A program made the position numbers and the translations under genes. From assembly GCF_009931435.1 (NCBI RefSeq), contig NZ_CP043414.1: a stretch of DNA of 64,000 nucleotides. One strand, 5' to 3'. The notes under the pieces are model-generated. The model did no database searches and was not told where the DNA came from. It saw only the letters and a program-made list of their open reading frames with translations. Position 1 is the stretch's first letter; the number at the start of each line of letters is the position of its first letter. This stretch comes from Escherichia coli (lineage in GTDB: Bacteria; Pseudomonadota; Gammaproteobacteria; Enterobacterales; Enterobacteriaceae). This document shows, in pieces, positions 367 to 40,831 of this stretch.

Positions 367-732
<366 letters not shown>

Positions 733-748
733 TTCTTGCGAGTTTCAG

Positions 749-776
749 AAAAGGGGCCTGAGTGGCCCCTTTTTTC
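749..776 (+). terminator. rpsO rho-independent terminator (GGGGCC-loop-GGCCCC + T-run)
   Basis: inverted repeat aaaaggggcctgagtggccccttttttc read directly after rpsO stop. Confidence 0.8.
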
Positions 777-977
777 AAACTGACGGCAGCAATTCACTGG
801 AAACTAATGTATTGTTGCTATGAATGATCTTCCGTTGCAGAGGTTCGCGCGGCTAATGAGAGGCTTTACCCACATTGGGCTGGGTTAGGGTTGTCATTAG
901 TCGCGAGGATGCGCAGAAGATCGGGTATTAACACCAGTGCCGTAAGGTGCTGTCTAAGAAAGAGAAAGGATATTACA
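777..977 (+). promoter_or_regulatory. pnp 5' leader (autoregulatory region; RNase III-processed stem-loop reported for this leader)
   Basis: ~200 nt untranslated gap between rpsO terminator and pnp TTG start; the in-frame upstream extension of the ORF track (891..) is probably leader, not coding. Confidence 0.55.
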
Positions 978-3113
978 TTGCTTAATCCGATCGTTCGTAA
1001 ATTCCAGTACGGCCAACACACCGTGACTCTGGAAACCGGCATGATGGCTCGTCAGGCTACTGCCGCTGTTATGGTTAGCATGGATGACACCGCGGTATTC
1101 GTTACCGTTGTTGGTCAGAAAAAAGCCAAACCAGGTCAGGACTTCTTCCCGCTGACCGTTAACTATCAGGAGCGTACCTACGCTGCTGGTCGTATCCCAG
1201 GTAGCTTCTTCCGTCGTGAAGGCCGCCCAAGCGAAGGCGAAACCTTGATTGCGCGTCTGATTGACCGCCCGATTCGCCCGCTGTTCCCGGAAGGCTTCGT
1301 CAACGAAGTTCAGGTTATCGCCACCGTGGTTTCTGTTAACCCGCAGGTTAACCCGGATATCGTTGCGATGATTGGTGCTTCCGCAGCACTTTCTCTGTCT
1401 GGTATTCCGTTCAATGGTCCGATTGGTGCTGCCCGCGTAGGTTACATCAATGACCAGTACGTACTGAACCCGACTCAGGACGAACTGAAAGAGAGCAAAC
1501 TGGATCTGGTTGTTGCCGGTACAGAAGCTGCCGTGCTGATGGTTGAATCTGAAGCTGAACTGCTGAGCGAAGACCAAATGCTGGGCGCAGTGGTGTTCGG
1601 TCATGAACAACAGCAGGTTGTTATTCAGAACATCAATGAACTGGTGAAAGAAGCCGGTAAACCGCGTTGGGATTGGCAGCCGGAGCCGGTAAACGAAGCG
1701 CTGAACGCGCGCGTTGCTGCGCTGGCTGAAGCTCGTCTGAGCGATGCTTATCGCATCACCGACAAACAAGAGCGTTATGCGCAGGTTGATGTCATCAAAT
1801 CTGAAACCATCGCGACGCTGCTTGCTGAAGATGAAACCCTGGACGAAAACGAACTGGGTGAAATTCTGCACGCTATCGAGAAAAATGTTGTTCGTAGCCG
1901 CGTACTGGCAGGCGAACCGCGTATCGACGGTCGTGAAAAAGATATGATCCGTGGTCTGGATGTGCGTACTGGCGTGCTGCCGCGTACTCACGGTTCTGCG
2001 TTGTTCACCCGTGGTGAAACGCAGGCACTGGTTACCGCAACGCTGGGTACTGCACGTGACGCACAGGTTCTTGATGAACTGATGGGCGAACGTACTGACA
2101 CCTTCCTGTTCCACTACAACTTCCCTCCGTATTCCGTAGGTGAAACTGGCATGGTCGGTTCTCCGAAGCGTCGTGAAATTGGTCACGGTCGTCTGGCGAA
2201 GCGCGGCGTGCTGGCAGTAATGCCGGATATGGACAAATTCCCGTACACCGTACGTGTAGTGTCTGAAATTACCGAATCCAACGGTTCTTCTTCTATGGCT
2301 TCCGTGTGCGGTGCGTCTCTGGCGCTGATGGACGCAGGTGTGCCAATCAAAGCTGCTGTTGCGGGTATCGCAATGGGGCTGGTGAAAGAAGGCGACAACT
2401 ACGTTGTACTGTCTGACATTTTGGGCGACGAAGATCACCTGGGCGATATGGACTTCAAAGTTGCGGGTTCCCGCGACGGTATCTCTGCACTGCAGATGGA
2501 TATCAAAATTGAAGGTATCACCAAAGAGATCATGCAGGTTGCGCTGAATCAAGCTAAAGGTGCGCGTCTGCATATCCTGGGCGTCATGGAGCAGGCGATC
2601 AACGCGCCGCGTGGTGATATCTCTGAGTTTGCACCGCGTATCCATACCATCAAGATCAATCCGGACAAGATCAAAGACGTTATCGGTAAAGGCGGTTCTG
2701 TTATCCGTGCCCTGACCGAAGAAACTGGCACCACCATCGAAATCGAAGATGACGGTACTGTGAAGATCGCAGCGACCGACGGCGAGAAAGCGAAAAACGC
2801 TATTCGTCGTATCGAAGAAATCACCGCAGAAATCGAAGTGGGCCGCGTCTACAATGGTAAAGTGACCCGTATCGTTGACTTTGGCGCGTTTGTTGCCATC
2901 GGCGGCGGTAAAGAAGGTCTGGTCCACATCTCTCAAATCGCCGACAAGCGTGTTGAGAAAGTGACCGACTACCTGCAGATGGGTCAGGAAGTTCCGGTGA
3001 AAGTTCTGGAAGTTGATCGCCAGGGCCGTATCCGTCTGAGCATTAAAGAAGCGACTGAGCAGTCTCAACCTGCTGCAGCACCGGAAGCTCCGGCTGCAGA
3101 ACAGGGCGAGTAA
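978..3113 (+). CDS. pnp: polynucleotide phosphorylase (PNPase), 711 aa, TTG start
   Basis: ORF 891..3113; N-terminus [21 protein letters not shown] begins at the in-frame TTG at 978; RNase PH-like repeats, KH and S1 regions at C-terminus (…[28 protein letters not shown]…). Confidence 0.95.
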
Positions 3114-3123
3114 GGTTGCCATT

Positions 3124-3150
3124 TGCCCTCCGCTGCGGCGGGGGGCTTTT
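3124..3150 (+). terminator. pnp rho-independent terminator
   Basis: gccctccgctgcggcggggggc hairpin followed by tttt just after pnp stop. Confidence 0.75.
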
Positions 3151-3221
3151 AACCGGGCAGGACGCCTTGTTAGCAACCGGGAACAGGACGTTCATTCAAC
3201 CGTGGTCTTCGGGAGTGGGAA

Positions 3222-4106
3222 ATGAAGCCTTTTTTGCGCTGGTGTTTCGTTGCGACAGCACTTACGCTTGCAGGATGCAGTAATACTTCCTGGCGTAAAA
3301 GTGAAGTCCTCGCGGTACCATTGCAACCGACTTTACAGCAGGAAGTGATTCTGGCACGTATGGAACAAATCCTTGCCAGTCGGGCTTTAACCGATGACGA
3401 ACGCGCACAGCTTTTATATGAGCGCGGAGTGTTGTATGATAGTCTCGGTCTGAGGGCATTAGCGCGTAACGATTTTTCGCAAGCGCTGGCAATCCGACCG
3501 GATATGCCGGAAGTATTCAATTACTTAGGCATATATTTAACGCAGGCAGGCAATTTTGATGCTGCCTATGAAGCGTTTGATTCTGTACTTGAGCTTGATC
3601 CAACTTACAACTACGCGCACTTGAATCGCGGGATCGCATTATATTACGGCGGTCGTGACAAGTTAGCGCAAGATGATCTGCTGGCGTTTTATCAAGACGA
3701 TCCCAATGATCCTTTCCGTAGTCTGTGGCTTTATCTCGCCGAGCAGAAGCTCGATGAGAAGCAGGCTAAAGAAGTGTTAAAACAGCACTTCGAAAAATCG
3801 GATAAGGAACAGTGGGGATGGAACATTGTCGAGTTCTACCTGGGCAACATTAGCGAACAAACGTTAATGGAAAGGCTCAAGGCGGACGCAACGGATAACA
3901 CCTCGCTCGCTGAGCATCTCAGTGAAACCAACTTCTATTTAGGTAAGTACTACCTAAGTCTGGGGGATTTGGACAGCGCCACGGCACTGTTCAAACTGGC
4001 GGTTGCCAACAACGTTCATAACTTTGTTGAGCACCGATACGCATTGTTGGAATTATCGCTCCTGGGCCAGGACCAAGATGACCTGGCAGAATCGGACCAG
4101 CAATAG
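3222..4106 (+). CDS. nlpI: TPR-repeat outer-membrane lipoprotein NlpI
   Basis: 294 aa; signal peptide with lipobox LTLAGC; TPR-like repeats; conserved pnp-nlpI-deaD order. Confidence 0.93.
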
Positions 4107-4285
4107 CTGACGTACACATCAGCCCGTAATCTTTTTTGATTGCCATCACCTTAACGGGTGAGGGCGTTGTTGTTCGTTAATACACCTACTTTGAGCCGGT
4201 TCACACTTTTCAATGAAAATTGCTGATCAATTTCATGATGAGTTATGTAGACTGGCCGCCATTAATTTTGAGGCACACGTACTAC

Positions 4286-6175
4286 ATGGCTGAATTCGAA
4301 ACCACTTTTGCAGATCTGGGCCTGAAGGCTCCTATCCTTGAAGCCCTTAACGATCTGGGTTACGAAAAACCATCTCCAATTCAGGCAGAGTGTATTCCAC
4401 ATCTGCTGAATGGCCGCGACGTTCTGGGTATGGCCCAGACGGGGAGCGGAAAAACGGCAGCATTCTCTTTACCTCTGCTGCAAAATCTTGATCCTGAGCT
4501 GAAAGCACCACAGATTCTGGTGCTGGCACCGACCCGCGAACTGGCGGTACAGGTTGCTGAGGCAATGACGGATTTCTCTAAACACATGCGCGGCGTAAAC
4601 GTGGTTGCCCTGTACGGCGGCCAGCGTTATGACGTGCAATTACGCGCCCTGCGTCAGGGGCCGCAGATCGTTGTCGGTACTCCAGGCCGTCTGCTGGACC
4701 ACCTGAAACGTGGCACTCTGGACCTCTCTAAACTGAGCGGTCTGGTTCTGGATGAAGCTGACGAAATGCTGCGCATGGGCTTCATCGAAGACGTTGAAAC
4801 CATTATGGCGCAGATCCCGGAAGGTCATCAGACCGCTCTGTTCTCTGCAACTATGCCGGAAGCGATTCGTCGCATTACCCGCCGCTTTATGAAAGAGCCG
4901 CAGGAAGTACGCATTCAGTCCAGCGTGACTACCCGTCCTGACATCAGCCAGAGCTACTGGACTGTGTGGGGGATGCGTAAAAACGAAGCGCTGGTACGTT
5001 TCCTGGAAGCGGAAGATTTTGATGCGGCGATTATCTTCGTTCGTACTAAAAACGCGACTTTGGAAGTGGCAGAAGCTCTTGAGCGTAACGGCTACAACAG
5101 CGCTGCACTGAACGGTGACATGAACCAGGCGCTGCGTGAGCAGACTCTGGAACGCCTGAAAGATGGTCGTCTGGATATCCTGATTGCGACCGACGTTGCG
5201 GCCCGTGGCCTGGACGTTGAGCGTATCAGCCTGGTAGTTAACTACGATATCCCGATGGATTCCGAGTCTTACGTTCACCGTATTGGTCGTACCGGCCGTG
5301 CGGGGCGTGCTGGTCGTGCGCTGCTGTTCGTTGAGAACCGCGAGCGTCGTCTGCTGCGCAACATTGAACGCACTATGAAGCTGACCATTCCGGAAGTAGA
5401 ACTGCCGAACGCAGAACTGCTGGGCAAACGCCGTCTGGAAAAATTCGCCGCTAAAGTACAGCAGCAGCTGGAAAGCAGCGATCTGGATCAATACCGTGCA
5501 CTGCTGAGCAAAATTCAGCCGACGGCGGAAGGTGAAGAGCTGGATCTCGAAACTCTGGCAGCCGCACTGCTGAAAATGGCACAGGGTGAACGTACTCTGA
5601 TTGTTCCGCCAGATGCGCCGATGCGCCCGAAACGTGAATTCCGCGACCGTGACGACCGTGGTCCGCGCGATCGTAACGACCGTGGCCCACGTGGCGACCG
5701 TGAAGATCGTCCGCGTCGTGAACGTCGTGATGTTGGCGATATGCAGCTGTACCGTATTGAAGTGGGCCGCGATGATGGTGTTGAAGTTCGTCATATCGTT
5801 GGCGCGATTGCTAACGAAGGTGACATCAGCAGCCGTTACATCGGTAACATCAAGCTGTTTGCTTCTCACTCCACCATCGAACTGCCGAAAGGTATGCCGG
5901 GTGAAGTGCTGCAACACTTTACGCGTACTCGCATTCTCAACAAGCCGATGAACATGCAGTTGCTGGGCGATGCACAGCCGCATACTGGTGGTGAGCGTCG
6001 TGGTGGTGGTCGTGGTTTCGGTGGCGAACGTCGTGAAGGCGGTCGTAACTTCAGCGGTGAGCGCCGTGAAGGTGGTCGTGGTGATGGTCGTCGTTTTAGC
6101 GGCGAACGTCGTGAAGGCCGCGCACCGCGTCGTGATGACTCTACTGGTCGTCGTCGTTTCGGTGGTGATGCGTAA
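4286..6175 (+). CDS. deaD: cold-shock DEAD-box ATP-dependent RNA helicase DeaD/CsdA (629 aa)
   Basis: ORF 4220..6175; start set at [13 protein letters not shown]; motifs [12 protein letters not shown] (LVLDEADEM), [13 protein letters not shown]; Arg/Gly-rich C-terminal tail. Confidence 0.95.
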
Positions 6176-6200: not shown

Positions 6201-6280
6201 TGTAAAATAATATATACAGCCCCGATTTTAACCATCGGGGCTTTTTTTCTGTCTTTTGTACTCGTGTACTGGTACAGTGC
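6201..6280 (+). promoter_or_regulatory. mtr control region: TyrR-box-like TGTAAA-N6-TATACA and TrpR operator-like palindrome tgtactcgtgtactggtaca
   Basis: motifs read directly upstream of mtr; mtr is known to be TrpR-repressed and TyrR-activated. Confidence 0.55.
6218..6250 (+). terminator. deaD rho-independent terminator
   Basis: agccccgattttaaccatcggggct hairpin + T7 run after deaD stop. Confidence 0.8.
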
Positions 6281-6328
6281 AATGCATAACAACGCAGTCG
6301 CACTATTTTTCACTGGAGAGAAGCCCTC

Positions 6329-7573
6329 ATGGCAACACTAACCACCACCCAAACGTCACCGTCGCTGCTTGGCGGCGTGGTGATTATCGGCGGCACCATT
6401 ATTGGCGCAGGGATGTTTTCTCTGCCAGTGGTCATGTCCGGTGCGTGGTTCTTCTGGTCAATGGCGGCGCTGATCTTTACCTGGTTTTGTATGCTGCATT
6501 CCGGCTTGATGATTCTGGAAGCTAACCTGAATTATCGAATTGGCTCGAGCTTTGACACCATCACCAAAGACTTGCTGGGCAAAGGCTGGAACGTGGTCAA
6601 CGGCATTTCCATTGCCTTTGTGCTCTATATCCTGACCTATGCCTATATTTCTGCCAGCGGTTCGATTCTGCATCACACCTTCGCGGAGATGTCGCTGAAT
6701 GTTCCGGCACGAGCTGCAGGTTTTGGTTTTGCGCTACTGGTGGCGTTTGTGGTGTGGTTGAGCACCAAAGCCGTCAGCCGGATGACGGCGATTGTGCTTG
6801 GGGCGAAAGTTATTACCTTCTTCCTCACTTTCGGCAGTTTGCTGGGGCATGTGCAGCCTGCGACATTGTTTAACGTCGCGGAAAGCAATGCGTCTTATGC
6901 ACCGTATCTGTTGATGACCCTACCGTTCTGTCTGGCCTCATTTGGTTATCACGGTAACGTGCCGAGCCTGATGAAGTATTACGGCAAAGATCCGAAAACT
7001 ATCGTGAAATGCCTGGTCTACGGTACGCTGATGGCGCTGGCGCTGTATACCATCTGGTTGCTGGCGACGATGGGCAACATCCCTCGTCCGGAGTTTATCG
7101 GAATCGCCGAGAAGGGCGGTAATATTGATGTGCTGGTACAGGCATTAAGCGGTGTATTGAACAGCCGTAGCCTGGACCTTCTGCTGGTCGTGTTCTCAAA
7201 CTTTGCAGTGGCGAGTTCGTTCCTCGGCGTAACGCTGGGTTTGTTTGACTATCTGGCAGATCTGTTTGGTTTTGACGACTCTGCCCTGGGCCGCTTGAAA
7301 ACGGCACTGTTGACCTTTGCACCGCCTGTCGTGGGTGGCCTGCTGTTCCCGAACGGATTCCTGTACGCCATTGGTTATGCTGGCTTAGCGGCTACCATCT
7401 GGGCTGCAATTGTTCCGGCGCTGTTGGCCCGCGCATCGCGTAAACGCTTTGGCAGCCCGAAATTCCGTGTCTGGGGCGGCAAGCCGATGATTGCACTGAT
7501 TCTGGTGTTTGGTGTTGGCAACGCACTGGTGCATATTTTATCGAGCTTTAATTTGCTGCCGGTGTATCAGTAA
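6329..7573 (+). CDS. mtr: tryptophan-specific permease Mtr (aromatic amino acid/H+ symporter family)
   Basis: 414 aa polytopic membrane protein [33 protein letters not shown]... Confidence 0.93.
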
Positions 7574-7579
7574 TCAGCG

Positions 7580-7685
7580 GTGCCTTATCCGACATTTCTG
7601 CTGCCTACACAATGCCTGATGTGCTTCGCTTATCAGGCCTACGTAGGACAGCGTTGCCAGCTCGGATAAGGCTTCCCACGTTAAA
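7580..7685. repeat. REP/BIME palindromic elements (2-3 units)
   Basis: gccttatccgacat..., gcttatcaggcctacgtagg..., ctcggataaggc units in the mtr-yhbW convergent gap. Confidence 0.8.
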
Positions 7686-7690
7686 ACACA

Positions 7691-8698
7691 CTATCCCAGT
7701 AACTCTTCCTTAACATCCATCGCCAGCTCAAACGAATGCAGGCGCGCCTGGTGATCGAAAATCTGCCCGTTAACCATAATCTCATCCGCGTCGGTTTCGC
7801 GCAGGATCGACTGCAAACCATGACGCACTTTCGCTTTATCACCCACCAGCGACATACTCAGCGCCTGCTGCACGCCATACTGCTCAGACGGTGACCAGAA
7901 CTGATCCATATTTTGAATCGGTGGCGGCAGTTGCCCGGTTTCACCGCGGCGCAGCTTCACAAAGGCTTGCTGCATTGAGGTAAACAGAAATTCAGCGTCG
8001 CGGTTGCTGTCGGCGGCGATAATATTGATGCACACCATCGCATACGGTTTTTCCAGTCGTGCCGACGGTTTGAAGTTGCTGCGATAAAGATGCAGCGCCT
8101 GGAATAGCATATCCGGTGCGAAGTGTGAGGCAAACGCGAACGGCAGACCAAGCTGCGCCGCCAGTTGTGCACTGTAAAGGCTGGAGCCTAATAACCACAC
8201 GGGGATTTTCTCGCCATAGCCTGGTACCGGGCGCACATGCGGATTGGGATCGCGGGCGTCAAACCAGTCCACCAGCTCCGCGACATCGCGGGGGAAATTA
8301 TCAATATCGCCGCTCATATGACGACGTAGAGCCATCATGGTTCGCTGGTCACTACCCGGAGCACGGCCCAGCCCCAAATCGATTCGCCCCGGATAGAGCG
8401 TATTGAGCGTGCCGAACTGTTCGGCGATCACCAACGGTGAGTGGTTTGGTAACATCACGCCGCCAGACCCCAGATGCAGCGTAGTGGTATTCGCCGCCAG
8501 ATAGCCAATCAAAACTGATGTTGCAGCACTGGCAATACCGGTCATATTGTGGTGTTCTGCCAGCCAGTAGCGATGATAGCCGCGCTTTTCAGCCAGACGG
8601 GCGAGGTCGAGAGAGTGGGAGAACGCTTCTCGCGCTGAAGAACCTTCTGGGATGGGGGCCAGATCGAGTAGCGAAAACGCAGTGGTTTTATCAGTCAT
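7691..8698 (-). CDS. yhbW: luciferase-like (LLM-class) flavin-dependent monooxygenase
   Basis: 335 aa ORF; [19 protein letters not shown]...; position after mtr. Confidence 0.85.
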
Positions 8699-8778
8699 AA
8701 CAGCTCACTTTGTTACCGATTAATCTTTAATACTGCATTAAAGGGTAGTTAAAGTTGTTAACAAAGTGAGCTATTTGC

Positions 8779-9657
8779 TTAGGCTTGCAGTTCCAGCCCA
8801 GCCAGCCGTCTCCAGTAGCCGTTACAGTCGCTGTTTGCCGTCAACGGGAGTGGTGCAGCGCCATTTTCATTAGCGCGGAAGGCGTCGAGCATCGCGAAAG
8901 TGTCAGTACCCTGCGGTGACAGGCGGACCACATCAACCAGCCCCTGCATGGATGCCAGCTCGTTACCGAGGTTGTACACGTAGCCGCTCATGGTCTGAAT
9001 GCCATTGAGCACAAACACTTGTTGGTTTTCCTGCGACAGCACGTTGCGCCCGTTCGGATACTTAATGCAGCAGGTTTCACACTCATCTTTTGGGCGGTCT
9101 TCCGAACGCGCGGTAAAGCAGCGGGCGGAGTAGGCCAGCGGCAGATGACCGTAGCTCAAGACTTCCACTTCAAACTGGTTGCGAATGCCCAGCTCATCGC
9201 ACTGATTAAGCAGATTCACCAGCCAGTCGCGGGAAAGTTCCACCGGCATACACCAGCGCATCATTCCCTGTTTGAGCAATATTTTCAGCGTCACCGCGTT
9301 GTAGCAGTTCAGAGCGTGTCCGGCGACGAACGGCAGTTTGCGCTCAGCGCACATATTCACCACGCCGAGATCGCTGGCTTCAATCAGAAACTCACCGTTC
9401 TCAACATAGCGTTTCAGTTCGCCCAGTTCGGAGGATGCCTGCACCAGCGCCAGCGTGGAGAGCACAATCTGCTTGCCACTTCCGGCGAGCGATTTTGCCA
9501 TCTCCAGCCAGTCGCCAACTTTGGTTGCCCGGCGTTTGCTACAGACCGCTTCACCGAGATAAATCACGTCTGCGCTGCTGGCGGCGGCCTGCTGATAAAA
9601 ATCTTCCAGCGTCTCTTTTGGCCAGTACCACAGCACCGGCCCTAAGGAATATTTCAT
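8779..9657 (-). CDS. ubiV: peptidase-U32 family protein, O2-independent ubiquinone biosynthesis hydroxylase subunit UbiV (YhbV)
   Basis: ORF 8779..9675; start set at MKYSLGPVLWYW (292 aa); U32 family; adjacent to ubiU. Confidence 0.85.
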   Translation of the reverse strand: MKYSLGPVLWYWPKETLEDFYQQAAASSADVIYLGEAVCSKRRATKVGDWLEMAKSLAGSGKQIVLSTLALVQASSELGELKRYVENGEFLIEASDLGVVNMCAERKLPFVAGHALNCYNAVTLKILLKQGMMRWCMPVELSRDWLVNLLNQCDELGIRNQFEVEVLSYGHLPLAYSARCFTARSEDRPKDECETCCIKYPNGRNVLSQENQQVFVLNGIQTMSGYVYNLGNELASMQGLVDVVRLSPQGTDTFAMLDAFRANENGAAPLPLTANSDCNGYWRRLAGLELQA

Positions 9658-9665
9658 TACTTTTC

Positions 9666-10661
9666 TCACTGCCATTTACGGTGATACGCGCCAAGAGTGG
9701 TTTGTGTGCCTTCGGACATCGACCCGAGCGTCTCCATCCACGCGCTTTGCGGCACGAAGTTTTGCGGATCGGCCTTACAACGGTCGATAGCCTGACGCCA
9801 GACTTTCGCTACCTGGCTGACATACGCAGGGCTACGCTGGCGGCCTTCAATTTTCACCGAAGCGATATTCGCCGCCATTAACTCCGGCAGTAGCTCAAGG
9901 GTATTGAGACTGGTTGGTTCTTCCAGCGCATGATAGCGCTCGCCGTCCACCAGATAACGCCCTTTACACAGCGTCGGATAACCTGCGTTTTCGCCGTCCT
10001 GATAACGGTCGATCAGCACTTCGTTCAGGCGGGATTCCAGCCCCTGCGGCGTTTGCTGCCAGCGCACGAAACGGGCCGGAGAACATGCCCCCACGGTGTT
10101 GGGCGACTCACCCGTCAGATACGACGACAGATAGCAACGACCTTCCGACATAATGCACAGACTGCCGAAAGCGAACACTTCCAGCGGTACAGGCGTGACC
10201 CGCGCCAGTTGTTTCACCTGATGAATCGATAACACGCGCGGCAGCACCACGCGGGCAACGTCAAAATGGCGATGATAAAAGTGAATCGCCTCTTCATTGG
10301 TCGCCGAAGCCTGCACTGACACATGACGCTCAATATGCGGGTAACGCTCGGCGGCGTACTCCAGCATGGCGAGGTCGGCGAGAATCAGCGCGTCGGCACC
10401 CAGCTGCGCCGCCATATCCACGGCGCGCTGCCAGCGGGCGTAACCGTCCGGATGCGCAAAAGTGTTAATCGCGATGTGAAGTTTGCGGCGATGTTGATGG
10501 ACAAAACTCACCGCTTCCTGCAATTTTTTCTCGGTAAAGTTAAGGCCGGCGAAGTGACGGGCATTGGTATCATCTTTTAGCCCGATATAAACAGCATCTG
10601 CGCCGTTTTCGATGGCCGCCTTAAGCGCCGGGAGATTTCCGGCAGGGCAGAGCAGCTCCAT
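9666..10661 (-). CDS. ubiU: peptidase-U32 family protein UbiU (YhbU), 331 aa
   Basis: ORF 9666..10688; start set at MELLCPAGNLPALKAA; U32 family with Cys cluster. Confidence 0.85.
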   Translation of the reverse strand: MELLCPAGNLPALKAAIENGADAVYIGLKDDTNARHFAGLNFTEKKLQEAVSFVHQHRRKLHIAINTFAHPDGYARWQRAVDMAAQLGADALILADLAMLEYAAERYPHIERHVSVQASATNEEAIHFYHRHFDVARVVLPRVLSIHQVKQLARVTPVPLEVFAFGSLCIMSEGRCYLSSYLTGESPNTVGACSPARFVRWQQTPQGLESRLNEVLIDRYQDGENAGYPTLCKGRYLVDGERYHALEEPTSLNTLELLPELMAANIASVKIEGRQRSPAYVSQVAKVWRQAIDRCKADPQNFVPQSAWMETLGSMSEGTQTTLGAYHRKWQ

Positions 10662-10869
10662 AATTTTTCCTGAAGGGTGCGCTATCAAAGCGCAAAAATG
10701 TTAACGAACTGGGATTTTAGTTAACCTTGCTGCGACAATTTTTGATTTAAGGCAGTTAAAGTTGTATTGGTGGTAGCAGCAATTTCATATGGAATTGTTG
10801 ATTTATACCGCTATGTTATTTTTCTGATATGGCAAAATAGGATGATTGTTGAAACAGGGAGTAAAACTC

Positions 10870-11394
10870 GTGTTGGATAAACTGCGTTCCCGTATTGTGC
10901 ATTTGGGGCCATCTCTGTTGAGTGTACCGGTAAAACTGACGCCATTTGCGCTAAAACGCCAGGTTCTTGAGCAGGTCTTAAGCTGGCAATTCCGTCAGGC
11001 GCTGGATGATGGCGAGCTGGAGTTTCTTGAAGGCCGCTGGTTAAGTATTCATGTGCGTGATATTGACCTGCAATGGTTTACCTCGGTGGTGAATGGCAAA
11101 CTGGTCGTTAGCCAGAACGCGCAAGCTGATGTGAGTTTTAGTGCCGACGCCAGCGATCTGCTGATGATTGCGGCGCGTAAACAGGATCCGGACACGCTCT
11201 TCTTCCAGCGTCGGCTGGTGATTGAAGGCGATACGGAGCTGGGATTATATGTGAAAAACCTGATGGACGCCATTGAACTGGAGCAAATGCCGAAAGCCTT
11301 ACGCATGATGCTGCTGCAACTGGCGGATTTTGTTGAGGCGGGAATGAAAACCACGCCTGAAACCAAACAGACATCGGTAGGTGAACCATGCTAA
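10870..11394 (+). CDS. ubiT: SCP2-domain lipid-binding protein UbiT (YhbT), GTG start
   Basis: ORF 10846..11394; 174-aa version begins VLDKLRSRIVHLGP; divergent from ubiUV. Confidence 0.8.
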   Translation: MLDKLRSRIVHLGPSLLSVPVKLTPFALKRQVLEQVLSWQFRQALDDGELEFLEGRWLSIHVRDIDLQWFTSVVNGKLVVSQNAQADVSFSADASDLLMIAARKQDPDTLFFQRRLVIEGDTELGLYVKNLMDAIELEQMPKALRMMLLQLADFVEAGMKTTPETKQTSVGEPC

Positions 11395-11891
11395 TTCGAG
11401 TAGAAATTCCAATTGATGCGCCGGGTATTGATGCCCTGCTGCGTCGTTCATTCGAAAGCGATGCGGAAGCGAAGCTGGTTCACGATCTGCGTGAAGATGG
11501 CTTTCTGACGCTGGGGCTGGTGGCGACAGATGACGAAGGTCAGGTCATTGGCTATGTGGCATTCAGTCCGGTTGATGTGCAGGGCGAAGACCTGCAATGG
11601 GTCGGCATGGCACCGCTGGCGGTAGATGAAAAATACCGTGGACAGGGACTGGCACGCCAACTGGTCTATGAAGGACTCGATTCGCTTAATGAGTTCGGCT
11701 ATGCCGCAGTGGTGACGCTGGGCGATCCGGCGCTGTACAGCCGTTTCGGCTTTGAACTGGCGGCACATCACGATCTGCGTTGCCGCTGGCCGGGCACTGA
11801 AAGCGCCTTCCAGGTACATCGTTTAGCGGATGATGCGCTGAATGGCGTAACCGGTTTGGTTGAGTATCACGAACACTTCAATCGCTTTTAA
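11388..11891 (+). CDS. yhbS: GNAT-family N-acetyltransferase YhbS
   Basis: 167 aa; acetyl-CoA-binding-like QGLARQLV motif; 7-nt overlap with ubiT stop. Confidence 0.85.
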
Positions 11892-12180
11892 TCTTTGGGG
11901 TTTGCAGGCTGCTCAACAGTTCTGCAAACCCTGCGCCTTCTGCTACCAGACGCTCTTTTTGCCGTTTGGTCAGTTGCTTGATGCGATATTCCATCCGTAA
12001 CGCCAGCGAGCGGTCGCCCACTGGCGCGGAAAACGCCAGCGTCAGTTCTCCTTTCCCGCGCAGTGCTTTCGCCCCTTTTCCGCTTTGGTGCTGCTGATAG
12101 CGGCGTTCAACATCCGTGGTGATCCCGGTATAAAGCTTATTGTCGGCGGTACGGATCAAGTAAAGAAACCAGGGTGTCAT
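11878..12180 (-). CDS. yhbQ: GIY-YIG domain protein YhbQ (UPF0213)
   Basis: ORF 11878..12192; start set at [27 protein letters not shown] (GIY-YIG signature). Confidence 0.85.
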
Positions 12181-12230
12181 CGTCTGCGTCACATGTTAAG
12201 GTCAGGCCCACAGTATAAAAGAGAACAGCT

Positions 12231-12653
12231 ATGGAAACACTCACCGCCATCAGCCGTTGGCTGGCAAAACAACATGTTGTCACCTGGTGTGTGCAGCAGG
12301 AAGGGGAATTGTGGTGCGCCAATGCCTTTTATCTTTTTGATGCACAGAAAGTTGCCTTCTACATTTTGACGGAGGAAAAAACGCGTCACGCGCAGATGAG
12401 TGGGCCGCAGGCGGCAGTTGCTGGAACGGTAAACGGTCAGCCGAAAACGGTAGCGTTAATTCGCGGCGTGCAGTTTAAAGGTGAGATCCGCAGACTGGAA
12501 GGTGAGGAAAGCGACTTTGCGCGCAAGGCGTATAATCGTCGCTTTCCGGTTGCCAGAATGCTGTCGGCGCCGGTGTGGGAAATCCGGCTTGATGAAATCA
12601 AATTCACTGACAACACGCTGGGCTTTGGTAAAAAAATGATTTGGCTACGTAGC

Positions 12654-12674
<21 letters not shown>
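12231..12674 (+). CDS. yhbP: UPF0306 protein YhbP (pyridoxamine-5'-phosphate-oxidase-like fold family)
   Basis: 147 aa ORF divergent from yhbQ. Confidence 0.8.
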
Positions 12675-13210
<536 letters not shown>

Positions 13211-30490: not shown

Positions 30491-31300
30491 ATGAGTAATA
30501 CCGACGCTTCAGGCGAGAAGCGAGTGACAGGCACCAGCGAGCGACGAGAACAAATCATTCAGCGCCTGCGACAGCAAGGGAGTGTGCAGGTTAACGATCT
30601 GTCGGCATTGTATGGCGTATCTACTGTGACGATCCGCAACGATCTGGCTTTTCTGGAAAAGCAGGGGATCGCTGTGCGGGCCTATGGCGGCGCGTTGATC
30701 TGCGATAGCACGACGCCGTCAGTCGAGCCATCAGTGGAAGATAAAAGCGCGCTGAACACTGCGATGAAACGCAGCGTTGCGAAAGCTGCCGTTGAGTTGA
30801 TTCAGCCAGGTCATCGGGTGATCCTCGATTCCGGGACCACCACGTTTGAGATTGCTCGTCTGATGCGCAAGCACACCGACGTAATTGCGATGACCAATGG
30901 TATGAACGTAGCCAATGCACTGCTGGAAGCAGAAGGCGTTGAACTTCTTATGACCGGCGGGCATCTGCGGCGTCAGTCGCAATCTTTTTACGGCGATCAG
31001 GCTGAACAATCGCTACAAAATTACCACTTTGATATGCTTTTTCTCGGCGTAGATGCGATCGATCTGGAGCGCGGCGTCAGCACGCATAATGAAGATGAAG
31101 CCCGTTTAAACCGTCGGATGTGCGAAGTTGCGGAACGGATCATTGTGGTCACCGATTCCAGTAAGTTCAACCGTTCCAGTTTACATAAGATCATTGATAC
31201 TCAACGTATCGACATGATCATTGTTGATGAAGGCATTCCTGCGGATAGTCTGGAAGGCCTGCGAAAGGCTGGGGTTGAAGTGATTCTGGTCGGGGAGTGA
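30491..31300 (+). CDS. agaR: DeoR-family transcriptional repressor of the aga operons
   Basis: 269 aa; N-terminal HTH (…[17 protein letters not shown]…) and DeoR sugar-phosphate-binding C-domain. Confidence 0.9.
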
Positions 31301-31589
31301 GAAATGGCGCCCGTAGCTCAACACGGATGTGTTCGGCGGGCATTGTTCACTGACCTTTTACAGCCTGTTTTCTGCTCAAATTAGAAACTTCAGCAAAGGT
31401 AATGCAAATGCATTATTAACAGCAGAAAGCGCCAGAACCAACGAAAAAAGAGAGCATGTTTCCCATTTTGCGAGGCGCTTTCCAAATCACCCGCTCAGTC
31501 CCCTCGCGTTGCAGTGCTAAAAGCACTATTTTGCAAATTTGTGACCTTCTTCACTCTCCCAAAAGGCGGTGATCTCACGGTGGGGATCC

Positions 31590-37000: not shown

Positions 37001-37077
37001 GTTACTTCCATACTCAATATTAAATTGACTTGTGATGCCATGGTTTTATCTAAACGCTGGCATGATGAAGTGTGCTA

Positions 37078-38439: not shown

Positions 38440-38508
38440 AAAAATATCCTTATATACCGATTAATGTATCACTGCGACTTTGGTTTTATTAATATCCTGT
38501 TGCTATGG

Positions 38509-38826
38509 TTACTTTTGCTCTTTTTTTATTATGGCGATAGCTGATTTTAGAACACCTAAGCCATCAATTTTTCCATATAACATTGAATCAATAACTTCCA
38601 CTGGCTTTCCTGGTAATAAGCTTTGGATCTCTGATTGCATGTAAGCAATTTGAGGTCCCAATAATATAACATCGGCTTCCGGCCCTTTCTCTGCGGCAAC
38701 AGATTCGGAGAATGCTTCGATAATTACTGGCACATCATATTTTATCGCCTGCACTTTCATTTTTGACACCAGCAGTGATGTTGACATTCCCGCTGAACAA
38801 AATAAGTATATTTTTTTCTTTTCCAT
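38509..38826 (-). CDS. PTS lactose/cellobiose-family EIIB component (ChbB-like), 105 aa
   Basis: ORF 38509..39042; start set at [23 protein letters not shown] (phospho-Cys motif), preceded by GGAG. Confidence 0.8.
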
Positions 38827-39059
38827 AGGGACTCCAGATATATTACGTAATAATATATTTGTCATGCCATGAATGGCATATGAGGCGACTTTAATTAAAA
38901 AGGCACGGATGTTTATATTGATTTCCTGAATGTCGTCTTTTGGTATTAATCTCAAAAATTTCAGGAGCCATTGAATAATCTGGTTTATAGGATTGAATGT
39001 CAAGAGAGTGAAATTGTGGGCGTGTTGTAATAAAAATAGCACGGCTTTCGGTAGGTTTC

Positions 39060-39165
39060 TTTTTTAGCGGAATGAAAAGTACAGGCAAAATGGTAATTGA
39101 ATAAATTAACGTTTTTTCAATAGATTACGTTTTTTTCTGCCTACAGGAATGAAAAAAACAACAAT
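39060..39165 (-). promoter_or_regulatory. putative promoter/operator region of the EIIB-led operon with two GGAATGAAAA repeats
   Basis: gcggaatgaaaagtacagg and acaggaatgaaaaaaacaac about 75 bp apart in AT-rich DNA upstream of the EIIB start. Confidence 0.35.
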
Positions 39166-39211
39166 CTAAAAATACTTTAGATATGTGAGAGTTATCACTT
39201 ACTTTTCGTGG

Positions 39212-39245
39212 GGAAAACGGGGAAACACAGTCTCCCCGTTTTCCG
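39212..39245 (-). terminator. garD rho-independent terminator
   Basis: aaacgggga...tccccgttt hairpin immediately downstream of garD stop. Confidence 0.65.
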
Positions 39246-39259
39246 TTCATGCAAGGCCG

Positions 39260-40831
39260 TCAAGTCACCGGTGCCGGGTTAAACACCGCCAGCTGGTTAT
39301 GCAGTCCCCATTGATCTGAGAAGGTTTTCTTCTTCCCGCTGGCGACGTCGAGAATAAAATGGAACAATTTCCAGCCCACCTCTTCAATAGTTTCTTCGCC
39401 GGTAGCGATGGTGCCCGCATTAATATCCATTAAATCAAACCAGCGGTTCGCCAGCTCGGTGCGGGTCGCCATTTTAATGACGGGTACCGCCATCAGGCCG
39501 TACGGCGTGCCGCGACCGGTCGTAAACACTTGCACGGTAATCCCTGATGCCACCTGTTGCGTGCCACAGACAAAATCGCTGGCTGGCGTCGCGGCGTAAA
39601 TTAATCCGCGTTTAGTCGGGCGTTGACCGGGCGATAGCACTTCAACAATTGCGCTTTTACCCGATTTAGCAATGGAGCCGAGAGCCTTCTCCACTACGTT
39701 TGCCAGACCGCCTTTCTTGTTGCCCGGAGAAGGGTTGGCGCTGCGGTCGGTTTTTCCCATATTGAGATAGTTATCGTACCACTCCATCTCCTCCAGCAGC
39801 CGTTTGCCGACCTCTTCGTTCACTGCGCGTGGTGTCAGCAGATGGATCGCGTCACGCACTTCTGTGACTTCTGAAAACATCACCGTTGCGCCGCAGCGCA
39901 CCAGTAGATCAGACGCATACCCAACCGCCGGGTTTGCCGTTACGCCAGAAAACGCATCGCTGCCACCGCACTGCATGCCGACAACCAGTTCTGAAGCCGG
40001 ACAGGTTTCTCGCTGACGTTGATTCAGTTTTTGTAGATGGCGTTCGGCGACCTGCAAAATATCCTCGACCATGGACTGAAAACCGACATGCTTTTCATCC
40101 TGCAAACTGACAATGCTGGCGCTTTCTACTGGAATAGCTTGCACATCATCCGTTCCAGTCAGCAGGCGCTCAGGCTGCAACTTTTCACAACCCAGACCAA
40201 TCACCATTACTTCGCCGCCAAAGTTAGGGTTCAGCGAAATATTGTGAATGGTACGAATAGGCACAACTGCCGCCGGTGCGTTAATCGCCACGCCACAACC
40301 GTACAAATGATTCAGCCCCACCACGCCATCGACGTTCGGGTATTTCGGTAGCAGATCGCGTTCAATGATTTTTACTACATAGTCCACCACGCCTGCCACA
40401 CAGTGGACGCTGGTGGTGATGCCGAGCAGGTTTTTGGTGCCCACGCTGCCATCGGCATTGCGATAGCCCTCAAAGGTGTATCCTTCCAGTGGCGGTAAGG
40501 GGGCCGGGACTTTAGTTGCCAGTGGCAGCGTGTGTAACGGTGGCGCTTCCGGTAGTACAACCATTGATTCGTCGATCCAGCTTCCGCGTGGGATTGCGCG
40601 CACGGCGTAACCAATCACTTCACCATAACGAATAATTTCACCATTAGCCGGAATGTCCAGCAATGCGACTTTATGCCCCTGGGGAATATGTTCAATTAAT
40701 TCCAGCCCATCCGGAAAACGCGTTCCTGCTTTCAGGCCATTATCATTAACAATAATTGCCACATTATCTGTGTCGTGAACTTTTATATAAAACGCAGTTG
40801 GCGTTTCTTGTCTGATTTCGATGTTGGCCAT
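39260..40831 (-). CDS. garD: galactarate dehydratase (L-threo-3-deoxy-hexulosonate-forming)
   Basis: 523 aa; [28 protein letters not shown]...; divergent from garPLRK. Confidence 0.9.

Follow-up and report, generated by a model that had tools for sequence, protein, structure and literature searches.

A chb-derived PTS cassette without an EIIA gene behind an aga-type promoter in Escherichia coli, possibly served by resident ChbA

Where does a lactose/cellobiose (Lac/Cel)-family PTS permease obtain its phosphoryl groups when no gene for a cognate EIIA accompanies those for EIIB and EIIC? The question is raised by an 8-kb insert flanked by agaR (30491-31300, + strand) and garD (39260-40831, - strand) in Escherichia coli. 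The 64-kb window (the whole stretch of DNA analysed, to which coordinates refer unless another source is named) consists of ordinary E. coli chromosome, running from pnp through the aga cluster and the gar genes to tdc. The explanation that we favour, with reasonable though far from complete confidence, is that the insert carries an EIIA-less cassette derived from chb behind an aga-type promoter/operator, and that resident ChbA would supply the EIIA in trans. The features of the island are listed in Table 1; the arrangement of chbB'-chbC'-chbF'-chbG'-gfo-rok is best explained as an operon in which chbB' is the first gene.

Table 1. Genes and leader elements of the agaR-garD island, in window coordinates
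Feature	Position	Strand	Basis or remark
AgaR-like DeoR-family repressor, 256 aa	31833..32603	+	NF040755, 365.3 bits (cutoff 260)
ROK sugar kinase, NagK-like, 303 aa	32648..33559	-	NF009835, 306 bits (below cutoff 380)
Gfo/Idh/MocA oxidoreductase, 418 aa	33578..34834	-	Family match; first gene of the back-end module
chbG', YdjC-family deacetylase, 252 aa	34877..35635	-	NF002559, 351 bits (above ChbG equivalog cutoff)
chbF', GH4 6-phospho-beta-glycosidase, 450 aa	35648..37000	-	Pfam Glyco_hydro_4
chbC'-chbF' spacer, 77 nt	37001..37077	-	Place of chbA-chbR in canonical operons
chbC', EIIC permease, 453 aa	37078..38439	-	ChbC equivalog NF007634
chbB', Lac/Cel-family PTS EIIB, 105 aa	38509..38826	-	ChbB equivalog NF007796
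Non-coding upstream extension, 72 codons (promoter and ~140-nt 5'UTR)	38827..39042	-	Codon-position comparison
Sigma70-like promoter, TTGACA-17 nt-GATTAT	38972..39003	-	10/12 consensus positions
Operator-like block TTTTCATTCCGCTAAAAAAGAAACCTACCGAAAG, TTTC repeats	39045..39078	-	Most conserved block of the E. coli/Escherichia sp./Citrobacter alignment
Second box TTTTCATTCC	39146-39155	-	Accompanies the operator-like block
CRP-like palindrome AAGTGATAACTCTCACATAT	39181..39200	-	Kept in all five leaders; putative function

The island is rare. Among 5426 complete E. coli genomes, three carry it at high coverage. Two of them, R32_14_1F and RMDEC465, have the window type (99.6% identity), while the third carrier, GF4-3, has a more distant allele (92.4%). 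The insertion site also differs in its surroundings. In GF4-3 agaR is separated from the island by a prlF-yhaV toxin-antitoxin pair (locus 3201-4000), with yhaV already a pseudogene. In the window this pair has been deleted (junction 31336-31346; ~800 bp missing, ~11-nt overlap), leaving only the 5' end of prlF and the sequence upstream of it. At the other end a GC-rich hairpin (GGAAAACGGGGAGACTGTGTTTCCCCGTTTTCC, 39212-39244) follows directly after the garD stop codon, between garD and the island promoter region, and is probably the garD terminator, although a simple terminator scan made no call. Literature searches on this island and on GH123/ABC/ROK clusters returned nothing specific.

Both PTS genes have clear relatives in chb. 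chbB' scored 189.8 bits against the ChbB equivalog (cutoff 157; profile positions 1-104 of 106), a product identical to it matches Pfam PTS_IIB (PF02302 family), and its identity to ChbB of K-12 is 81%. Residues 1-23 of ChbB' are those of ChbB except at position 5, and Cys10, within FCSAGMSTS, is invariant in an alignment with three ChbB proteins. Cys10 of the N-terminal loop is the phosphorylatable active-site residue of ChbB-type EIIB proteins. chbC' scored 800.6 bits against its equivalog (PF02378; cutoff 760) and is 73% identical to K-12 ChbC. The histidine of GIHG and the glutamate of NINE, which in the paper on structure 3QNQ reportedly have roles in the EIIC sugar site, are retained in ChbC' and align with H250 and E334 of Bacillus cereus ChbC (3QNQ). 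ChbF' and ChbG' are 75% and 57% identical to their K-12 counterparts. The labels 'chbC' and 'agaR' on the island do not in themselves prove chitobiose specificity or AgaR function; the AgaR-like regulator shares only 44% identity with the true AgaR encoded next to it, even though it lies above the NF040755 cutoff. The ROK kinase matched NagK structures (254 bits). For the Gfo enzyme all NCBIfam matches were far under cutoff; those in the PDB were confined to the Rossmann part, over which YjhC and NanOx are the nearest solved proteins.

As described earlier, an ORF of 177 aa with a GTG start occupies 38509..39042 (- strand). The original prediction held that its upstream part is non-coding leader and that EIIB starts internally with its own RBS, and both points stand. 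Homology and the profile match run from Met73, the ATG at 38826, with GGAG as its Shine-Dalgarno sequence 5 nt upstream. Between the window and GF4-3 alleles, the 318-nt EIIB coding sequence has 2, 1 and 29 substitutions at codon positions 1, 2 and 3; the 216-nt extension has 9, 7 and 11, showing no codon-position bias, and also a frameshifting 1-nt indel. The best promoter match (39003-38975, - strand) lies inside the extension, downstream of its GTG, and a profile search gave no family match for the 71-aa extension peptide. A product of 105 aa is predicted by PGAP in two genomes and, independently, by gene calling on a Logan assembly. On this sequence evidence the 177-aa ORF is an artefact and the predicted gene is the 105-aa chbB', so that the annotation should be corrected from 177 to 105 aa. 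The 5'UTR contains a perfect inverted repeat, ATGCCAT-TC-ATGGCAT (38864-38879, - strand), ~40 nt upstream of the EIIB start, whose arms are kept in the GF4-3 allele with only the centre differing. Folding of the 5'UTR gave a z-score of -1.17, no better than shuffled sequence, and thus no evidence of a structured leader or riboswitch there.

The absence of a cognate EIIA between 31301 and 39259 was confirmed by tblastn and HMM searches and extends to the rest of the 64-kb window. The queries for tblastn were E. coli ChbA and three solved Lac-family EIIA proteins, with sequences taken from the PDB. At E ≤ 100 these four gave only noise in the window, the best match (E = 0.022) spanning 30 aa at 23.7 kb and thus falling outside the locus; K-12 ChbA and ChbR had no match in the window at E ≤ 1. 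A custom HMM, built from seven EIIA sequences, was run with filters off on six-frame stop-to-stop segments of at least 15 aa, and the search was therefore independent of start codons and covered small ORFs. Its best score on the whole window was 5.7 bits (E = 2.1), compared with 171.7 bits for the K-12 chb locus as control. A small EIIA ORF, or one with a non-ATG start, had been named as the finding that could overturn the claim; none was found down to 15 aa in six frames and, with the HMM at 5.7 against 171.7 bits and tblastn giving noise even at E ≤ 100, the idea that such a gene was overlooked in the locus can practically be set aside. A fused EIIA domain is excluded because none of the island proteins has room for one when set against its chb counterpart (ChbC' 453, ChbF' 450 and ChbG' 252 aa; ChbC 452, ChbF 450 and ChbG 249 aa). 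There is no PF02255/ChbA-type EIIA coding segment in the locus or window, and AgaF, a mannose-family protein, is the sole EIIA encoded there.

The closest EIIC relatives outside the island cluster (76-77% identity) are those of Superficieibacter and of a second Salmonella copy. Every close relative examined (the Salmonella copy, Superficieibacter and E. coli chb) has the gene order EIIB-EIIC-EIIA-AraC regulator-GH4-YdjC, while of this complete B, C, A, R, F, G set the island has only B, C, F and G. The spacer between chbC' and chbF' resembles neither chbA nor chbR, nor the intergenic regions next to them, and a search of the leader for remnants of chbA or chbR found none. As the relatives are all B-C-A-R-F-G and only 77 nt, free of any remnant, separate chbC' from chbF', the most economical interpretation is a loss of chbA (EIIA) and chbR (the AraC-type regulator) from a putative chbBCARFG-type ancestor; the suggestion that an EIIA gene had been lost here is in keeping with this. 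EIIA is absent from both island alleles, so its loss predates their divergence.

Other parts of the canonical operon are missing as well. The 5'UTR of the PTS version (38827-38965) showed no similarity to the chbB leaders of K-12, the second Salmonella copy or Superficieibacter. The chbB-chbC spacers of the same three operons contain CCCGTCAAAGAG, which we take to be the trap (decoy) site for the sRNA ChiX. This motif is missing from the chbB'-chbC' spacer (38440-38508) and the paralogue would therefore not titrate ChiX. The second Salmonella copy is a complete chbBCARFG-type operon, found beside frdABCD in some S. enterica genomes (retrieved loci 7600-12770).

A permease that has lost its EIIA could be a non-functional relic, decaying since chbA disappeared. 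The island is rare and has neither EIIA nor ChbR, and the neighbouring prlF-yhaV pair is deleted or pseudogenised, all of which would fit such decay. The two alleles tell against it. Their DNA identity is 86-97% per gene, with dS of 0.11-0.62 per gene, and all seven ORFs are intact in both. For EIIB and EIIC, dN/dS is 0.020 and 0.019 (at dS of 0.2-0.6), compared with 0.029 for garD and 0.008 for agaR as core genes. Purifying selection on EIIB and EIIC is strong, with constraint like that of core genes, and a dN/dS of ~0.02 despite the absence of EIIA means that the transporter has been kept functional without one of its own. Together with the retained Cys10, GIHG His and NINE Glu, this selection implies a working phosphoryl donor and disfavours a decaying relic; the promoter is conserved too. 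We regard decay as improbable. As only 3 of 5426 genomes have the island, it may have come under selection within E. coli itself only recently or weakly.

Divergence between the alleles is uneven along the island. For GH4, EIIC, ROK and DeoR, dS is 0.11-0.23; it is higher for ChbG' and Gfo (0.36 and 0.60; 88-89% amino-acid identity; 6242-8295 of the GF4-3 locus) and also for EIIB (0.62). This pattern suggests that recombination may have occurred within the island.

If the transporter works, an EIIA is likely to come from elsewhere in the genome. A composite query (an island-specific segment plus K-12 chbA) was searched against the 5426 complete E. coli genomes, and had two matches in every one of the three genomes with the island and a single match, chbA, in others. 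chbA is present in 5394 of the 5426, including all three with the island, and in R32_14_1F an intact osmE-chbBCARFG-katE region lies at 2,229,722-2,234,962, ~1.55 Mb from the island. That the EIIA is borrowed, for example from chbA, had been proposed at the outset; with chbA elsewhere in every island-bearing complete genome this appears to be the best explanation, and we infer that phosphotransfer would run from ChbA to ChbB'.

The true partner could instead be another Lac/Cel-family EIIA, encoded elsewhere among the accessory genes of the host. Additional PTS loci can occur in accessory genomes of E. coli, Salmonella has its second complete chb copy, and the part of the genome inspected was the 64 kb plus the chb region. 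No such EIIA was seen in that part, however, and the nearest relatives of ChbB' are ChbB-type EIIBs (81%), with chbA in all three island genomes. A partner of this kind is unlikely, though it deserves some weight.

It is also conceivable that no EIIA of this family is needed. ChbC' might act as a facilitator with the ROK kinase phosphorylating the sugar inside the cell, or ChbB' might receive its phosphoryl group from HPr or from an EIIA of another kind, such as AgaF. A ROK kinase is encoded within the same operon, and mannose-family AgaF ~5 kb away. Strong purifying selection on an EIIB with Cys10 would make little sense, however, if the protein were never phosphorylated. The ROK kinase is part of the back-end module that is found with an ABC version of the locus too (see below), and its similarity is to NagK, a kinase of monosaccharides, rather than to BglK. 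We know of no precedent for transfer from an EIIA to an EIIB of a different family. We give this possibility very little credence.

With resident ChbA as donor, the route would be as follows. Phosphoryl groups would pass from PEP through EI, HPr and ChbA to Cys10 of ChbB' and then to the sugar bound in ChbC', the ChbA coming from the chbBCARFG operon ~1.55 Mb away. After import, ChbG' would deacetylate the phospho-disaccharide and the GH4 enzyme would then split it, and the ROK kinase would phosphorylate the free sugar released. The operon that contains chbA is repressed unless chitobiose is present. Since it is normally repressed, the supply of ChbA might limit or gate the island transporter; this limitation might be avoided if the island substrate also induces chb, or if basal levels of ChbA suffice.

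Control of the island itself is presumably exerted by the AgaR-like repressor acting on the operon promoter. The promoter is invariant in all five aligned leaders and is common to the PTS and ABC versions of the operon. The block at 39045-39078 is a candidate, predicted site for the AgaR-like repressor. Between the region upstream of the regulator gene and the PTS leader, shared k-mers were not above those in shuffled sequence, with only short CTTTCGGT and TTTTCATT matches.

The ABC version reveals the mosaic nature of the island. A search for Gfo relatives found Gfo, ROK and the DeoR regulator together in Citrobacter, Escherichia sp. MOD1-EC7003, Cedecea and Vibrio as well. The ABC-Gfo-ROK-AgaR-like cluster shares its Gfo (57-84% identity), ROK and DeoR genes with the island; in Citrobacter and Escherichia sp. 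it also lies between garD and agaR, as the island does, and has a homologous promoter/operator. In contrast to the island, uptake in the ABC cluster is by a solute-binding protein (SBP), two permeases and an ATPase, and there are no PTS, GH4 or YdjC genes. Aligned with Citrobacter and Escherichia sp., window positions 38972-39200 are homologous to the leader of the ABC version and share its CRP-like palindrome, TTTC-repeat block and -35 and -10 hexamers. Homology stops just past the -10, after which the PTS version has its own UTR of ~140 nt. GC content steps at the ChbG'/Gfo boundary, from ~0.47-0.52 across Gfo-ROK-DeoR to ~0.39-0.47 across ChbG'-GH4-EIIC-EIIB. The leader homology, the GC step and the distribution of the genes therefore indicate a putative cassette swap, in which chbB'C'F'G' would have taken the place of the ABC transporter genes behind the pre-existing, conserved promoter/operator.

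The neighbours of the ABC version give some guide to what the island may be for. In Cedecea a gene of GH123, the beta-N-acetylgalactosaminidase family, lies near the ABC cluster (358 bits), and homologues of KbaZ, AgaS and KbaY adjoin the cluster in Cedecea and Vibrio. With these neighbours the back-end module belongs to amino-sugar catabolism of the aga type (GalNAc/GalN). The loci with this GH123 or KbaZ-AgaS-KbaY neighbourhood are those of Cedecea colo (locus 3383-5131) and Vibrio profundi (locus 464-4895). The island may thus be an accessory aga (GalNAc/GalN) operon, in which a chb-derived PTS, a GH4 enzyme and a deacetylase replaced the ABC transporter and would import a beta-linked HexNAc disaccharide (GalNAc/GlcNAc) of the host-glycan type, but this is a tentative suggestion, and we consider it rather doubtful in its full form. 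If true, the dependence of an aga-accessory island on ChbA would link the chb and aga regulons, which are otherwise separate. The locus also points to a PTS permease module that can move as a cassette, leaving its EIIA and regulator behind, and be plugged into another regulon; such a transfer works only if the recipient already has a compatible EIIA. Given the rarity of the island and its probably conventional biochemistry, the practical impact is small.

In E. coli, EIIA sharing is familiar from the Glc family, where Crr (EIIA-Glc) serves TreB, MalX and MurP, and to our knowledge this is the only family for which textbooks describe it in this species. The island offers a testable case of EIIA sharing inside the Lac/Cel family. 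Compared with chbBCARFG, the N,N'-diacetylchitobiose PTS of E. coli, it has homologues of ChbB, ChbC, ChbF and ChbG in the same order and on the same strand, but it is without chbA and chbR, has Gfo and ROK downstream and lies between agaR and garD rather than between osmE and katE.

A further incomplete chb paralogue, chbC-chbR-chbF-chbG, is present on a metagenomic enterobacterial contig (6120-10513), where it sits between a gpmA-like gene and galM, with a CCGTCAAAGAG motif upstream of chbC. Like the island it has no EIIA gene; unlike the island it has no EIIB gene either, and it keeps ChbR and the ChiX-trap-like motif. Partial chb modules that need resident components are therefore not unique to the island.

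The nearest functional parallel is in Lactococcus lactis, in which a Lac-family PTS is encoded at two loci, ptcBA and celB (PMC4286628). As proposed for the island, a Lac/Cel-family permease there takes its EIIA from a different locus (PMC4286628). The two systems differ in that both EIIA and EIIB are remote in L. lactis, where the arrangement has been established experimentally, whereas in the island, whose function is deduced from comparison, only EIIA would be remote.
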